From positions 9,920,001 through 9,984,000 of the forward strand of contig NC_135910.1 of assembly GCF_964194155.1 (NCBI RefSeq): a stretch of DNA of 64,000 nucleotides. Direction: 5' to 3'. Below the pieces are notes generated by a model. That model saw nothing but the letters and a program-made list of their open reading frames with translations. It did no database searches and was not told the origin of the DNA. A program made the position numbers and the translations under genes. This document shows positions 28,405 through 62,468 of this stretch, piece by piece. This DNA comes from Cetorhinus maximus (taxonomy: Eukaryota). How positions within the stretch are numbered: the first letter of the stretch is position 1; the number at the start of each line of letters is the position of its first letter.

Positions 28405-29215
28405 TCAACCAACAAGGAGGTCCATCAGATTCTCCAGCTCAGTGAAGTCCATCCGGCTGTTGTGGGGCTTTGTTGAAGGGGAGCCTCGCGAAGCTTTGAT
28501 AGGCTGGCTGGTGGGACAGGCCCCAGGGGAGAGGCCCTGCTGGACGTCATACATGGAGGTGTCAATATCCTCGAAGATCGCGTCGAGGGAGCCATCGATG
28601 AGGAAGTCATTGGAGTCGGCGATTTCGAAGGCCGCGAAGATGGAGTCGGGGGGCCTGGGCTCTGCTCGGGGGTCCAGGCTCGCTGGCTTCAGTGGCAAGA
28701 GGTGGTCATCTTCAGGAGGAACCTGGCTTGGTGGAGGGCTCAGGTCCTCCACAAAATCCAGGTCTTGGAGGATGGTGGAGATGGCGGAGGACAGCGAGCT
28801 GTCATTACCCGAAAGGAGGGAGAAGGGCACCTCTGTGAGGCTTGGCGATGGTGCCCCGCTGAGGTTATTGTTCAGGTCAGTGGTGGTCTCCGCTGCCGGC
28901 TTTGAGACTGGCCCCAGCTGCTTGGCACCACTGGCAGGTTGCTCTGGTGGCTGTGCTGGCTCCAAACAGGCTGTGGGCACCTCGTTGCGGCCACTCTCCC
29001 GGTGGATCTCCGCTTGCAGCCTGCGCAGGGTGTTGGCGATCAGCACCGAGCGGTGTAGGTTGCGCTCAGCCAGCACACAGTTCTGGTGCAGTTTGAGTAA
29101 CGAGAGGTCGAGCAGCGTGCCGCAGTGGAAGTTTTGCGGAGCACACTCTGCCGCAGGCTGCCCGCCGCCATCATCTTCATGGCGTTTCCGCTTCACTCCT
29201 TTGCCCAGTGGGAAC
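28405..29215 (-). CDS. SERTAD1: SERTA-domain protein, SERTAD1 (TRIP-Br1)-like, main coding exon; start codon not in this exon
   Basis: Contains LGKGVKRKRH, the SERTA domain LLDLSLLKLH..LHRSVLIANTLRRLQAEI, LSSAISTILQDL, IFEDIDTSMYD and C-terminal ELENLMDLLVG*. Acceptor ttgtattttgttttgcttag|G at 29215. The motifs are closest to recalled SERTAD1. Confidence 0.85.
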
Positions 29216-29595
29216 CTAAGCAAAACAAAATACAAGAAGCTTCCGTCAGCAACTCAATCAGAAAGTGCCAGAAATCCTCAGCAGGTTCAGGCAGCATCTG
29301 TGGATAGAGAGATAAAGTTAACATCTCAGGTCACCAGAACTGGCAAAACCTAAGAGATTTAATAATTTTTAAAACAAGTACAATGGCAGAGACAAAAGAA
29401 GGGAGAGGGAAGGGAAAAAAACAAAAGGGAGGGATCTGCAATGAAAACAGAAAATTCCGTAAATACTCTTTAGGTTTGGCAACATCTGTGGAGAGGGAGG
29501 GGGAGAGACAGACAGAGTTAAGATATCAGTTCGAACAGAAGATAATTGAAACGTTAACTCTGTTTCTCCCTCCGAAGATGCTGCCTGACCTCCGT

Positions 29596-39074: not shown

Positions 39075-40724
39075 AAGATAAAAGCAAAAAACTGCGGATG
39101 CTGGAAATCCAAAACAAAAATAAAAATGCCTCGAAAAACTCAGCAGGTCCGGCAGCATCTGCGGAGAGGAACACAGTTAACATTTCGAGTCCGAATGAGC
39201 CTTCAACAGAACTAAGTAAAAATAGAAGAGAGGTGAAATATAAGCTGGTTTAAGGGGGGTGGGACAGGTAGAGCTGGATAGAGGGCCAGTGAAAGGTGGA
39301 GATAACCAAAAGATGTCACAGACAAAAGGGCAAAGAGGTGTTGAAGGTGGTGTTATTATCTAAGGAATGTGCTAATTAAGGGTAGAAAGCAGGACAAGCA
39401 AGGTACATATAGCCCTATTGGTGGTGGGGTGGGGGAAAGGGATCGAAATAGGCTAAAAGGTAGAGATAAAACAATGGATGGAAATACATTTAAAAATAAT
39501 GGAAATAAGTGGGAAAAGAAAAATCTATATAAATTATTGGAAAAAAAGGGGGATCAGAAGGGGGGTGGGGATGGAGGAGAGAGTTCATGGTCTAAAGTTG
39601 TTGAACACAATATTCAGTCCGGAAGGCTGTAAAGTGCCTAGTCGGAAGATGAGGTGCTGTTCCTCCAGTTTGCATTGAGCTTCACTGGAACATTGCAGCA
39701 GGCCAAGGAAGGACATGTGGGCATGAGAGCAGGGTGGAGTGTTGAAATGGCAAGCAACAGGGAGGTCTGGGTCATGCTTGCAGACAGACCGAAGGTGTTC
39801 TGCAAAGCGGTCACCCAGTCTGCGTTTGGTCTCTCCAATATAGAGGAAACCGCATTGGGAGCAGCGAATGCAGTAGACTAAATTGAGGGAAGTGCATGTG
39901 AAATACTGCTTCACTCGAAAGGAGTGTTTGGGCCCTTGGGCGGTGAGGAGAGGGGAAGTAAAGGGGCAGGTGTTGCACCTTCTGCGGTTGCATGGGAAGG
40001 TGCTGTGGGAGGGGGTTGAGGTGTGGGGGTGATGGAGGAGTGGACCAGGGTGTCCCGGAGGGACTGATCCCTGTGGAATGCCGCCGGGGGGGGGCTGAAG
40101 GGAAGATGTGTTTGGTGGTGGCATCATGCTGGAGTTGGCGGAGGATGATCCTTTGAATGCGGAGGCTGGTGGGGTGATAAGTGAGGACAAAGGGGACCCT
40201 ATCATGGTTATGGGAGGGAGAGGAAGGTGTGAGGGCGGATGCACGGGAGATGGGCCGGACACGGTTGAGGGCCCTGTCAACCACCGTGGGTGGAAAACCT
40301 CGGTTAAGGAAGAAGGAAGACATGTCAGAGGAACTGTTTTTGAAAGTGGCAACATCAGAACAGATGCGACGGAGGCAAAGGAACTGAGAGAATGGGATGG
40401 AGTCCTTACAGGAAGCAGGGTGTGAGGAGCTGTAGTCAAGGTAGCTGTGGGAGTCGGTAGGCTTGTAATGAATATTGGTGGACAGTCTATCACCAGAAAT
40501 TGAGACAGAGAGGTCAAGGAAGGGAAGGGAAGTGTCAGAGATGGACCATGTGAAAATGATGGAGGGGTGGAAATTGGAAGCAAATTTAATAAATTTTTCC
40601 AGGTCCAGGCGAGAGCATGAAGCAGCACCGAAGTAGTCATCGATGTACCGGAGAAAAAGTTGTGGGAGGGGGCCGGAGTAGGACTGGAACAAGGAATGTT
40701 CCACATACTACATACATACACATA
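39075..40724 (-). mobile_element. Penelope-like element (RT plus GIY-YIG), 5'-truncated, 17-bp TSD
   Basis: FLRYIDDYFG (RT) and NLVYCIRCSQCGFLYIGETKRRLGDRFAEH (GIY-YIG), in different frames. TSD aacattggctaaaccat at 39058-39074 and 40725-40741. Confidence 0.9.
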
Positions 40725-56001: not shown

Positions 56002-56835
56002 TCAGGAGCTGACCAGGATCTCCATGATGTGATCCAGGTCATTCAGGTCAGTCCTTAAGCTTGGATTAGCTCCCAGCGAAGAAGAGGAATTGCATGAGGA
56101 GAAGGTCTTGGCCAGGTCATCAGCCACGCCGGGGGGTGCCACCCGGCCACTGGGAGCCGGCCCCACCGCAGCCGCGTCGCAGTCACACACGGAGGTGTCA
56201 ATGTCAAGGAAAAGGTCATCCAAGGTCACACCTACGAGGTAACTGGAGCTCATGATCTCAAAGCTGCCGAACACGGACTCCAAAGGTCTAGGAGGCTCCA
56301 GGGGATGGATTTCCTCTTTGTCTCCATCTTCTGCCGTTGTGTCCATAGCCTCTGACGAGTCCAAATTTTCCTGCAGGGGTGATTGTGAAGGGCTCCCATC
56401 GATAACGATGTCAAGGTCCCGGAGGATGGAGTTAATGGTGGAAGAAAGGGAGAAGTCCTCATCGGAAGCAGTGGACATGTAGTCCTCAAGGCCATCACCA
56501 AATCCAGCTGGGTGGCTCTCAGTGGTCAGCCGCGAGGGCGGGGGCTCCCGCTGACTGCCCAATTCCACGCACCCAGCATCTAAGGCCATGGCAGACACCA
56601 GTTGGCTGCTTTCCAACCGGATCTCCTCCTGAATCTGCCGCAGGGTGTTGGCAATCAGCACAGTGCGCCGGAGACTCAGCTCCGGCAGTGTCCGCCCACT
56701 TTGCATCTTATTCAGTGAGGTGTTGAGCACTAGCTGCCGCTTGAGGCTATAGGATTGCGGACAGTCGGCGAGGTTCTGACAGGAATCCAGACCTCCATCG
56801 GCATGGCGTTTCCGCTTCACACCCTTCCCAACCAT
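56002..56835 (-). CDS. SERTAD3: SERTA-domain protein, SERTAD3 (RBT1)-like, 277 aa, single coding exon
   Basis: Acceptor ctttcctttatcttggcag|GTCTCA ATG. Protein has MVGKGVKRKRH, the SERTA domain SLRRTVLIANTLRQIQEEI, EDFSLSSTINSILRDLD, LDDLFLDIDTS and DLDHIMEILVSS*. These motifs best match recalled SERTAD3. Confidence 0.85.
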   Translation of the reverse strand: MVGKGVKRKRHADGGLDSCQNLADCPQSYSLKRQLVLNTSLNKMQSGRTLPELSLRRTVLIANTLRQIQEEIRLESSQLVSAMALDAGCVELGSQREPPPSRLTTESHPAGFGDGLEDYMSTASDEDFSLSSTINSILRDLDIVIDGSPSQSPLQENLDSSEAMDTTAEDGDKEEIHPLEPPRPLESVFGSFEIMSSSYLVGVTLDDLFLDIDTSVCDCDAAAVGPAPSGRVAPPGVADDLAKTFSSCNSSSSLGANPSLRTDLNDLDHIMEILVSS

Positions 56836-59614: not shown

Positions 59615-59905
59615 CAATCCTCCCCAGTTCTATCTGGACCAGAACAACCCCACCTTATCCTGAATCTCCCTGCATTCTGACACCTCTGCTACCTCAACCT
59701 ATAATCCCCCTCCCCCATCCTGTGATTCCTCTCCCCAGCCTGTAATGCCCAACCCCCAAGCCCCTCCCCCAGACTCAATCTATAATGCTCCTCCCCATCC
59801 TATGATGCCCCTCCCCCATCGTGCGACTCCTCGCCCCCAGCCTGATTCCTTACTCAGTCTGTGACACCCCTCCCCCCTCCCAGCCCCTGACGCCCCTCCC
59901 CCTCC
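59615..59905. repeat. Degenerate ~20-bp C-rich tandem repeat (cccctcccccatcctgtgat-like)
   Basis: About 10 degenerate units in presumptive SERTAD3 intron 1. Confidence 0.55.
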
Positions 59906-61210
59906 TGGCCTTCCAGACTCCGCCCTCTTTCGCGCGTGCGTGCTCCGCCGTTTGGCGTCTGCCGCGCGATGAATTCTGGGAGTTGGAGTCCGCAGACCGA
60001 AGATGCCGCCCGTCCCCCCGTGGGTGCCGGCTACACAGCCGCCTGGCCCGGTAACTCCCGCGGGCCGGGCCGGGCCAGGCCTGGCCTGGCCCTTCGAAAA
60101 CTTCGTCCCACCCGAGTATTGACTCAAAAGCAGAACTACACCCCCCAGACCGCATAGCGGCGCTCTGCACATGCGCACTTGGAGTCGTGCAGTAGCCAAA
60201 TGCACCCCCCCACCCCCACCAAACAAGACTCGTCTCGCACCCTCCCCAACCGGGTCCGGTGGGGGTAAGGGTCTCGGTGCCCTCCCGGGGATTGATCCTC
60301 TCTGGAAATACACCTCCTGGGACACCGGCCGTTCCAGCTGGAGATCCCAACTGGCTTCACCCGGGTGAAAATCGGGCGGTCCAGAGCGGCCGTTTAAACG
60401 AGCACCCGAAGAGCCATAAAAATTGGACGGCGAATAAAAAATAACTCTCCCCGGGGAAGCGGGGGCGCTACCTGCTTAGTTACTTGGAAGCGATTTTTAA
60501 AAAAATTTCCGCGAGCGGTCACAGGGCCCTGAACATCACCGGCTCCGCTGCTTTTCCCTCCTCACCGACCCCCGGCCGCCATGACCCGTCCGCTCCCCGC
60601 CGAGTTCTTCATGTTATTTCTCTCTCCCTCTCCCCCCCCACCCCGAGAGCTCCGGCAATCAAGACTGGCCGAGCAGAAGCTCCCGCCCCCTAGCGGTGCT
60701 CCCATTGATCGCGACCGAGCGACTCTGGTCCAATTAGAGAGCATGATCTCCATCCCCCACCTCTGATTGGTTGGGCCAGCCGTCCATCATCGGAACGCGC
60801 TGATGGACAGTCGGATCAGCCAATCGTAAGCGCGAGTCAAGCGGCAACCGTAAAAAACTTCGTTTGAAATCCGAACAAATCAAACATATGGCGAGCAGTC
60901 GCCGGGTTAATCATCGATCGTTAAGTTTCGAATTAATCATCCAGTGGCGTATTGGCATGGTCAAATCATCGGCGTTCAACGCCATTTTTTTATTTTTAAC
61001 CTCCGTTGCTAAGCTACCGCAAAGGTCGATTGTGATTGGCGGAGTAGGGAGGGGGGGGTTAGCGCTATGAATGGGTTGGCCAATGGCGTGTCGGCAGCGG
61101 CCCTCTGTCATGCTGCGAGACGTCACTGAATGGGCGTGGGCTGCAGGCGGCCCCACCCACCCACCCCCGTGAGGGCGGGGCCCCGCTTCAGTAGGCGGGG
61201 CGAGCGGCGA
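59900..61210. promoter_or_regulatory. CpG island / bidirectional promoter between SERTAD3-like and thioredoxin-like genes
   Basis: CpG-dense. Six CCAAT boxes (60730, 60766, 60820, 60951, 61035, 61080), GC boxes near 61172 and 61195, CRE-like gacgtca at 61119, CHR-like tttgaa at 60863, YY1-like cgccattttt near 60980, NRF1-like tgcacatgcgca near 60166. Confidence 0.75.
60566..60690 (-). other. Candidate first exon of the SERTAD3-like gene (5' end approximate)
   Basis: Donor TCG|gtgagg at 60565 lies just downstream (minus strand) of the CCAAT cluster. SERTAD genes typically have a short first exon and one coding exon. Confidence 0.5.
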
Positions 61211-61578
61211 TGGGCGTGGTGGGCACCATCAAGTGCTTGGTGGAGTACGAGGTGGCGCTGCGGATCAGCGAGCAGCAACTGGTCATCCTACTCTTCTCTG
61301 CCAACTGGTGCGAGTTCTGCCAGATGATCCAGTTGTACTTCGACCAGTTCGCCGAGTGCTACCCGAACGTCGTCTTCTACGAGGTGGACATCAACGTGGC
61401 CAAGGATGTGGTGCAGCGCTGCCACATTGAGTGGTTCCCCACCTTCCAGTTCTACAAGGCTGGGGTCAAGGTCTTCCAGTTCAAGGGACCCAACCGCTGC
61501 CTCCTGGAGCGGATGATCCAGAAGCTGCAGGGATCCAAGTCGCAATGCTCGCCTAGATTAAACCCAACCGACACCTAA
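61210..61578 (+). CDS. Intronless thioredoxin-like protein, 122 aa, atypical WCEFC active site
   Basis: Colinear with cytosolic TXN: LVILLFSANWCEFCQMI, VVFYEVD, cis-Pro motif FPTFQFYK, FKGPN. Strong Kozak context (gcgATGG), very high third-position GC, intact ORF. Confidence 0.85.
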   Translation: MGVVGTIKCLVEYEVALRISEQQLVILLFSANWCEFCQMIQLYFDQFAECYPNVVFYEVDINVAKDVVQRCHIEWFPTFQFYKAGVKVFQFKGPNRCLLERMIQKLQGSKSQCSPRLNPTDT

Positions 61579-61768
61579 ACGTCTCCTGTGGCTATGTTTT
61601 GTCGTTATGGTCGTATCTATGGCTGGGCTTGACTAGCTTGCACCCTGGGTCTCTGCTGGCAGGAGTCCCACTTCAGGGATTTGAGCATAAACATGTTAGG
61701 CTGACGCTCCCGTGCCAGGGAATGGGCAGCATAAGGGGCTAAGTTTCTGTTTCACTCCCACCCCTAGG

Positions 61769-62468
61769 CAGGGTTGGCCAACCTTCCAGGATTGGCCTGG
61801 ACTGTCCCAGGAATTGAAGGATCCATCTCCAGCACACTGCCTGTGTGCCACGCTGAAGAAAACTTTCTCTTTTTTTGTTTGTCGTTTTCTTTGAACGTTT
61901 CTCTTTACCAGATATAAAAAATAATGAAAATAAAGGGGAGGGGCTGACAGTCAAGCATCATGCAATTGGGTTATGAGTCTTTTTTTTTTGCTTTCCAATT
62001 GGCGTAGGAGGAGGCAATGGCATAGCGGTATTGTTGCCGGACCAGTAATCCAGAGACCTAGGGTAATGCTCTGGGGACCTGGGTTTGAATCCAGCCACGG
62101 TAGATGGTGGAATTTGAGTTCAATAAAAAAAAATCTGGAATTAAAAGTCTTAACGATGACCGTTGTTGTAAAAACCCATCTGGTTCACTAATGGAAGGAA
62201 ATCTGCCGTCCTTACCTGGTCGGGCCTATATGTGACTCCAGACCCACAGTAATGTGGTTCACTCTTAACTGCATCCCTGAACATGGGGAATTTGGGATGG
62301 GCAATAAATGCTTGCCTACCCAGTGGCACCCACATCCCATGAATGAATTAAAAAAAGGAAGGCAGTACACCCTGAGGATGGATCTGTTGGCTGACTAATG
62401 GCTGGAGTGTGGGGACAAGTCATATGATAAAATCTCCAGGAATACATTTAATCACAGTTGGCAACCCT
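61769..62468. mobile_element. Non-autonomous DNA transposon (hAT/Blackjack-like MITE) containing a HE1 SINE
   Basis: TIRs agggttg(g)ccaac and gttggcaaccct; related ends at ~21255-21317 and ~38020. Confidence 0.55.
62008..62356 (+). mobile_element. Full-length HE1-type V-SINE
   Basis: tRNA-like head with A and B boxes, V-domain core ctggttcactaatg..ggaaatctgccgtccttacctgg, HER1-type tail. Confidence 0.85.

Follow-up and report, generated by a model that had tools for sequence, protein, structure and literature searches.

An intronless thioredoxin frame in which both the active-site dipeptide and the buried catalytic acid are replaced raises the question of whether it is a functional gene, how it arose and what chemistry it could perform. 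This frame, which we call gene A (protein P0001), lies at 61210..61578 on the plus strand of the window, by which we mean the whole 64,000-nucleotide stretch of Cetorhinus maximus DNA analysed here, and it translates without a stop into a single-exon thioredoxin-like protein of 122 amino acids. It matches the Pfam Thioredoxin family (PF00085) with an E value of 4.5e-17 and aligns with human Trx1 without a gap over residues 7-106, and unbroken contigs from two sequencing runs (X1, 61182-61767; X3, 61205-61690) span most of it. The start codon stands in the context GGCG-ATG-G and GC3 is 0.89, with 100/107 GC-ending codons in the domain versus 9/15 in the tail (Fisher p=0.0013). This C-terminal tail of 15 amino acids (61531..61575, plus strand) is predicted to be disordered, with pLDDT below 50 for residues 110-122. 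The first AATAAA 3' of the stop, a candidate polyadenylation signal, is at 61929..61934 on the same strand. In the Trx1 alignment the active site reads WCEFC (residues 33-37; 61306..61320, +), Leu28 (61291..61293, +) replaces the buried catalytic Asp26, and IQL stands where TXN has IKP. The protein carries seven cysteines, at positions 9, 34, 37, 50, 71, 97 and 113, of which only Cys34, 37, 71 and 97 are invariant (14/14) among the gene A sequences. On the intact frame, its start context and GC3, its colinearity with cytosolic thioredoxin, the active-site and IKP replacements, the number of cysteines and the different codon usage of the tail, a first-pass annotation had thus been accurate.

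Gene A is conserved. Protein searches, together with the members of the clusters found, yielded intact orthologues, 60-93% identical, in 13 named sharks, skates and rays; the search itself gave seven clusters among eight candidates, every one from a shark or ray and titled 'thioredoxin-like'. The motifs WCEFC, WFPT and FKGPNRCLLE are present in all 14 aligned sequences (the 13 orthologues and the present one). A profile search of the same protein database added no further gene A orthologue, and a HMMER scan covering 1.84 billion representatives of 50% clusters found a single A-type cluster (243 bits), the next-best single-domain match being a canonical WCGPC protein at 107 bits; of the other 148 new proteins, three were nearer A than TXN, all of them weak multi-domain matches below 50 bits. 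The protein and profile searches found no gene A orthologue in chimaera or in Heptranchias. Since both have other members of the cluster described below, the missing A may reflect incomplete annotation, and in the scanned library, clustered at 50%, such an orthologue would be concealed within the cluster of P0005. The suggestion that the gene is specific to cartilaginous fish stands for the cluster as a whole in all searches run, the profile search and the HMMER scan included, while A itself was found only in elasmobranchs. Against the contig of a relative (X2, 17 differences), codons 13-107 show six synonymous and five non-synonymous differences, giving a pN/pS of 0.21 (p=0.01), a small-number estimate from 11 differences in a single pair, and codons 108-119 of the fast-evolving tail show six non-synonymous and none synonymous. 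On these substitution counts the domain is under purifying selection, as a dN/dS-type check proposed beforehand was meant to reveal. Gene A is an old, retained, elasmobranch-wide gene inside a cartilaginous-fish cluster. Stops or frameshifts with neutral evolution, zero expression, or orthology to a described gene had been named in advance as grounds for abandoning it, and none of them appeared.

Another finding from this study, and one that the first-pass annotation had missed, is that gene A is not a lone gene. A search of its own genome places it first among four intact, intronless thioredoxin genes on the same strand, followed by gene B (WCSNC, 105 aa; G000:C33:9990910-9991227, +; L003:1450-1767), gene C (WCNNC, 106 aa; G000:C33:10001883-10002203, +; L005:1495-1815) and gene D (WCETC, 204 aa with a low-complexity N-terminus; G000:C33:10010810-10011424, +; L006:1198-1812). 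These lie 10, 21 and 30 kb downstream of A, that is, 7-27 kb beyond the window end, and were for that reason invisible to a reader of the window. An own-genome search with gene B found no fifth member. The GC3 of B-D is 0.82-0.94, and the possibility that they are pseudogenes was rejected, the flagged internal 'stops' being natural terminators. Genes B-D have orthologues throughout sharks and rays, and Callorhinchus has proteins of the C and D types. In S. torazame the consecutive locus tags scyTo_0016843-46 correspond to D, C, B and A on one contig of 102,270 bases, and in C. punctatum the consecutive accessions GCC31411-13 correspond to C, B and A. Protein identity is 42% between A and shark TXN and 32-36% between A and B-D. 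None of the four paralogues departs from W-C-x-x-C or the PT loop, and position 26 is hydrophobic in 38/38 cluster sequences (Leu in 14/14 A sequences; Met, Phe and Phe in B, C and D), compared with Asp in 4/4 WCGPC TXNs. In the extension of gene D (L006:1198-1494), the first 9-17 residues are conserved from shark to skate and the remainder is variable; the conserved residues are a possible targeting signal.

The cluster is flanked by two SERTA genes and by an exon that matches human BLVRB at E 1.6e-7. The matching 80-kb human region lists PLD3, HIPK4, PRX, SERTAD1, SERTAD3 and BLVRB and no thioredoxin in the gene list of a GWAS paper, as far as its available part goes (PMC5025747). The second SERTA-domain gene, SERTAD1-like, lies at 28405-29253 of the window on the minus strand; its frame opens without an ATG, so that the true start is probably further upstream or in a separate exon. 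Elsewhere in the neighbourhood, a 668-aa open frame at G000:C33:10043397-10045403 (+) carries C2H2 zinc-finger-like motifs, judged by eye, towards its C-terminus, and its first 201 residues have no Pfam match. An exon of a serine carboxypeptidase S28 gene, which we take to be PRSS16-like, lies at L023:8240-8539 (G000:C33:10102240). Short frames at G000:C33:10079936-10081608 (-) resemble endogenous-retrovirus integrase and envelope fragments. Long frames at 39585-40706 of the window (-), split over two frames, resemble the reverse-transcriptase/GIY-YIG end of a retroelement, and a 373-aa frame among them has no Pfam match. Literature searches returned no paper on a four-thioredoxin cluster in sharks, among listings and the openings of abstracts from a library that covers few of the subscription papers.

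Gene A is transcribed. Contigs cover its ORF in 7/7 runs examined, from five studies; these are seven of 13 runs guessed to be RNA, none annotated as such, and they were retrieved by matching this stretch, so that their coverage of gene A is by choice. In X11, the run whose organism best matches the DNA, coverage of gene A extends over 61387-61565 only. Two runs, X3 and X8, contain contigs in which 56839 is followed directly by 60470; the ends of the skipped segment read CT..AC, which is GT-AG on the minus strand, and these two runs are therefore spliced RNA. Depth falls to zero in places flanking gene A, for example at 59740-60105 and 61015-61115. The presence of gene A in runs from five studies may mean broader expression. 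The splice joins delimit a non-coding first exon of a SERTAD3-like neighbour at 60470..60602 (-), an X1 piece reaching 60602, and its coding exon is at 56002..56835 (-; Pfam SERTA, E 2.7e-15). Gene A and this gene stand head-to-head and share a CpG island at 60001..61500 (CpG o/e 0.99 for 60001-61000 and 0.62 for 61001-62000). On the SERTAD side of the island, at 60634-60870, are several CCAAT boxes and a TTTGAA at about 60863, which resembles a cell-cycle CHR site. On the gene A side, a putative proximal promoter module at 61079..61178 (+) consists of GCCAAT (61079), a half-CRE-like CGTCAC (61121) and a GC box (61173), and it recurs 5' of the sister genes. Across 184 kb the plus strand holds exactly four copies of the pattern CGTCAC..GGGCGG, one no more than 90 bases from each cluster-gene start, and in A, B and D a GCCAAT lies upstream of it. 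Shuffles reproduced the short pattern in 3-18 of 5000 and the long pattern in none of 5000, for a pattern chosen post hoc from sequences already inspected. The motif was not found 5' of the parent TXN.

How did the cluster arise? The canonical TXN, confirmed in this genome by exon mapping to have five exons with GT-AG boundaries as the first-pass annotation had stated for vertebrates, lies at G000:C2:177342899-177361655, on a contig other than that of gene A. Gene A runs colinearly across all parent introns at another locus, which is the mark of a retrogene. Neither a poly-A remnant near the stop nor a convincing target-site duplication flanking the gene was found, and neither would be expected given the age of the insertion. 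An 11-base repeat, GGGTTGGCCAA, present upstream and at 61771, was rejected as a target-site duplication because its upstream copy is the CCAAT box that A has in common with genes B and D. Eight intronless TXN copies elsewhere in the genome, 89-100% identical in DNA to the L002 query, which is itself one of them, indicate that TXN mRNA has been retro-copied in this lineage. The L002 copy (L002:1492-1812, G000:C18) is intact, matches the parent exons at 98-100% and has a GC3 of 0.42, and none of the scanned promoter motifs was found upstream of it; of the seven further processed copies, several have stops or frameshifts. A second intron-containing WCGPC thioredoxin gene, with Asp26 kept, lies just upstream of TXN at G000:C2:177292492-177306177 (L024-L026), together with a lone exon at 177330862 (L028); we take the position of this tandem gene to recall that of mammalian TXNDC8 next to TXN.

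Phylogenetic analysis used 49 rows in tree 1 and 32 in tree 2, with the hybrid chimaera model P0040, the isoform P0043, short or partial matches and near-duplicates excluded. Tree 1 supports the clades of A (100/100), B (99/96), C (100/97) and D (100/98), and B+C at 99/97. The stem of the A clade has 1.2 changes per site and the branches inside are short, which points to a burst followed by stasis. Joint monophyly of A-D has 81/80 in tree 1 and is an open polytomy with vertebrate TXN in tree 2, with a long-branch warning in both. The cluster as sister to shark TXN gives a p-AU of 0.17. The comparison with TXN, TXNDC2, TXNDC8 and TXNL1 called for earlier was carried out to the extent that tree 2 nests gene A in the vertebrate TXN clade at 93/89, in trees that hold no named TXNDC8 or TXNL1 sequence. 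The hydrophobic residue at position 26 in all 38 sequences and the common promoter module favour a single insertion. From sequence, we consider it highly probable that one old retro-insertion of TXN was followed by tandem DNA duplication, promoter included, before the chimaera split. A TXN cDNA would have inserted between SERTAD3 and BLVRB and acquired, at the SERTAD CpG island, a promoter of CCAAT, CRE-like and GC-box elements. It would have lost Asp26 and the GP dipeptide, and gene and promoter would have been duplicated together before the chimaera and elasmobranch lineages parted. The proposal of an old retrogene holds, then, in that A is TXN-derived, intronless, retained and transcribed, with no poly-A or target-site trace, and is amended in that four tandem paralogues make A itself probably the product of DNA duplication after one retro-insertion.

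As for its chemistry, an AlphaFold model of gene A from the 14-sequence alignment has a plain thioredoxin fold (pLDDT 86), and its top Foldseek matches are human Trx1 at an rmsd of 1.0-1.1 A. ESM Atlas matches are generic thioredoxin clusters only, and a homodimer prediction for residues 1-108 without an alignment scored 0.01 (mark 0.32). All 14 A sequences have W-C-x-x-C at the N-terminus of helix 2 (35-50 in the model, beginning in the WCEFC motif) and the conserved proline of the facing loop. In human numbering, Trp31, Cys32, Cys35, Asp58, Cys69 and Pro75-Thr76 are kept, and D26L, G33E, P34F, P40L, C73W, M74F, S90K, A92P and E95C are fixed in 14/14. D60N (11/14), D61V (11/14) and K72E (12/14) are near-fixed, with D60 and D61 lost in all, and position 39 is Arg in 5/14 A sequences and Lys or Arg in all B-D. 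Shark TXN itself has Gln36 and Ser72, so that the changes of A at those two positions are less telling. Two loops stand out in 14/14 sequences: W75-F76-P77 (61432..61440, +), where TXN has CMP and where homology suggests a cis proline, and K92-G-P-N-R-C97 (61483..61500, +), where TXN has SGANKE and where Ala92 has become Pro and a new invariant Cys appears. The 91-92 loop of thioredoxin also docks substrate. The claimed rewiring of the CXXC dipeptide is thus borne out by a WCEFC fixed in 14/14 but describes too little, as the remodelling reaches well past the dipeptide, across the surface that faces substrate and reductase.

Published mutants give some guide to the effect of such changes. In the available part of one study, Asp26 activates Cys35 in thioredoxin, and in an ancestral bacterial Trx, D26I lowers insulin reduction by 72% and raises the Tm by 10 C, a single surface Lys (A39K) restores activity, and Glu at 30, 73 or 74 marks the least active variants (PMC9601870); the D26I comparison is with this other scaffold. 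For human Trx1, K36E and D60N mostly lowered the efficiency of TrxR1, according to the portion available (PMC8189816). The accessible text of PMC2749146 has the residue preceding cis-Pro bonding to substrate and XX substitutions shifting CXXC potentials. The fixed surface changes, taken with these mutant data, predict a slow, partner-specific oxidoreductase. Cys34 would attack a partner disulfide and Cys37 resolve it, as in Trx1, minus the buried acid, while G33E, P34F, P40L, D60N, D61V, K72E, C73W, M74F and A92P would form an aromatic docking face that should fit one partner, and TrxR1 and generic substrates poorly. The residue changes of gene A predict a weaker fit to TrxR1. We are inclined, with some confidence, to regard gene A as a redox-competent but slow, partner-specific enzyme with an aromatic docking face.

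A setting for this enzyme is suggested by proteomics of catshark sperm. In the part of PMC11083954 available, the spermatozoa list holds 535 proteins, and A0A401PZS9, which is gene D of S. torazame, is in the spermatozoa sheet and absent from the seminal-plasma sheet of Table S2; neither sheet contains the accessions of A, B or C, so that one of the four cluster genes is present. By rough estimate, the chance that a list of that size includes one of any four genes drawn at random is below 1 in 10. Among the proteins compared, the gene D peptides are common only to D orthologues. Gene A has one 8-residue peptide common to two catshark species, and its absence from the proteome thus weighs little. 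The 'TXNDC2' in the text of PMC11083954, in the part available (A0A401PCP3, scyTo_0001399), was considered and is a locus other than gene D. The word 'thioredoxin' was not found in the main-text passages available of PMC11979771, in the main text of PMC13052469 or in PMC5278576. The match is suggestive for the cluster, and gene A itself is not in the list. For the germ-line specificity proposed in the first-pass annotation, the protein evidence is thus indirect and confined to gene D. The chances that spermiogenesis is the setting of gene A appear about even. A bolder version, which we put forward tentatively and think rather improbable, is a sperm thioredoxin system evolved independently by cartilaginous fish, in which four retro-derived, Asp26-less CXXC enzymes, differing from one another in their fixed active sites and docking faces, would first form and later rearrange disulfide cross-links in sperm chromatin or tail, and A would act as a dedicated oxidase or isomerase that bypasses TrxR1. 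If true, this would be an ancient convergent counterpart of the mammalian Sptrx genes, with a chemistry undescribed for vertebrate cytosolic thioredoxins.

The same residues could be read in other ways. Gene A might be a broadly expressed reductase of the ordinary type, carried by the SERTAD3 CpG island and active, for example, in proliferating cells, with other residues offsetting the lost Asp. Its head-to-head position with a SERTA gene on an island holding CCAAT boxes and TTTGAA, the coverage of its ORF in all seven runs from five studies, the retention of both cysteines, Trp and the cis-Pro position, and the rescue of D26I by one surface Lys, in the part of PMC9601870 available, all suit this reading. 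However, that coverage follows from how the runs were retrieved, a five-exon canonical TXN exists in the same genome, and P40L, C73W, M74F, A92P and CEFC are fixed in 14/14 with D60 and D61 lost in all; we consider an ordinary reductase unlikely. It is also conceivable that A forms or isomerises disulfides in cysteine-rich sperm proteins and is not a reductase. Shark protamines are rich in Cys and gene D is in the sperm list, but A is not, and we know of no electron acceptor for such a reaction. The shifts of CXXC potential by XX substitutions (PMC2749146, in part) and the oxidising activity of mammalian Sptrx-1, as worded in a reference title in the available part of PMC11276731, would agree with it, and we judge an oxidase or isomerase to be quite unlikely.

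The loss of Asp26, the heavily remodelled surface and the extra invariant Cys71 and Cys97 would also fit a non-catalytic adaptor or metal-binding subunit of thioredoxin fold, in which the cysteines are structural. Non-redox proteins of this fold, such as Dim1, typically have no cysteine pair, whereas all four paralogues keep W-C-x-x-C and the PT loop without exception. Hydrophobic replacement of D26 does stabilise the fold, in the available part of PMC9601870, and even so an adaptor seems to us very doubtful. That A is a processed pseudogene or a retrocopy intact by chance, like other TXN retrocopies here, might be entertained since one of the eight intronless copies is intact. Those copies, however, are 89-100% identical in DNA to L002, whose GC3 is 0.42, as against 42% protein identity and a GC3 of 0.89 for A, and A is intact in 14 species, has a pN/pS of 0.21 and is represented in RNA contigs; conservation from sharks to rays refutes this reading, and we give it hardly any weight. 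Taken as a whole, the reading that we prefer, of gene A as a conserved, transcribed tandem paralogue predicted to exchange dithiols and disulfides slowly and with a specific partner, perhaps in the male germ line, seems to us an evenly balanced proposition.

The fold and probable chemistry of gene A are already familiar. The shark cluster, by comparison, is an apparently unstudied vertebrate gene family known in databases only as 'thioredoxin-like', and in it both sharks and rays retain changes at positions regarded as central to catalysis by thioredoxins. Its four members are natural variants with which the influence of Asp26, of the XX dipeptide and of the docking loops on rate, potential and choice of partner can be tested. 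Should the link to sperm hold for the cluster as a whole, retro-derived thioredoxins would have been recruited convergently to the male germ line, a result with a bearing on shark reproductive biology.

Compared with known systems, gene A most resembles vertebrate TXN/Trx1 (human PDB 1ERT, 1ERV and 4POM), with which it shares the fold, a gap-free alignment at about 40% identity, W-C-x-x-C, Asp58, Cys69 and Pro75-Thr76; the best Trx1 chains match it at 82-87 bits, and the human thioredoxin-like chain 1gh2 at 40.6 bits. In contrast to TXN, which has four introns, lies on another contig and carries CGPC and Asp26, gene A is intronless, has CEFC and Leu, and adds P40L, D60N, D61V, K72E, C73W, M74F, A92P, E95C, a 15-aa tail and membership of a four-gene cluster. 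WCGPC, a buried Asp26 and a five-exon gene at the TXN locus, which define canonical TXN, are all absent from A. The mammalian TXNDC2/Sptrx-1 and TXNDC8/Sptrx-3 are likewise extra, sperm-linked thioredoxins, as the available parts of PMC11276731 and PMC3667087 describe them. Gene D resembles TXNDC2 in its low-complexity N-terminal extension, its automatic naming as 'TXNDC2-like' in two species and its presence in the shark sperm list. Of the TXNDC2 layout, an N-terminal extension plus a WCGPC domain, A has neither part, and D has the extension but WCETC. A koala 'TXNDC2-like' protein, the sole sequence of that name in the tree, keeps WCGPC and Asp26 and is nested in mammalian TXN at 100/98, so that the likeness to TXNDC2 is probably convergence; its grouping with D was rejected (p-AU 0.007) and with A was borderline (0.049). 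This koala model (P0086/P0091) falls in a 90% cluster with ordinary TXN and has a Pro-rich extension, and it may represent TXN with an alternative first exon and not TXNDC2. Gene A is not TXN and, from the residues and trees, probably not TXNDC2. Drosophila Dhd and TrxT are extra thioredoxins specialised for the germ line, TrxT with a C-terminal extension, and both keep WCGPC. They differ from gene A in having an independent origin, and a Thioredoxin-T chain (6z7o) is among the structure-chain matches of A. The engineered D26I thioredoxin, in the available part of PMC9601870, shares with A a buried Asp changed to a hydrophobic residue beside an intact CXXC. Unlike that engineered protein, the cluster is natural, its change is fixed in four paralogues of sharks and rays, with the C and D types in chimaera too, and it is combined with new XX dipeptides.
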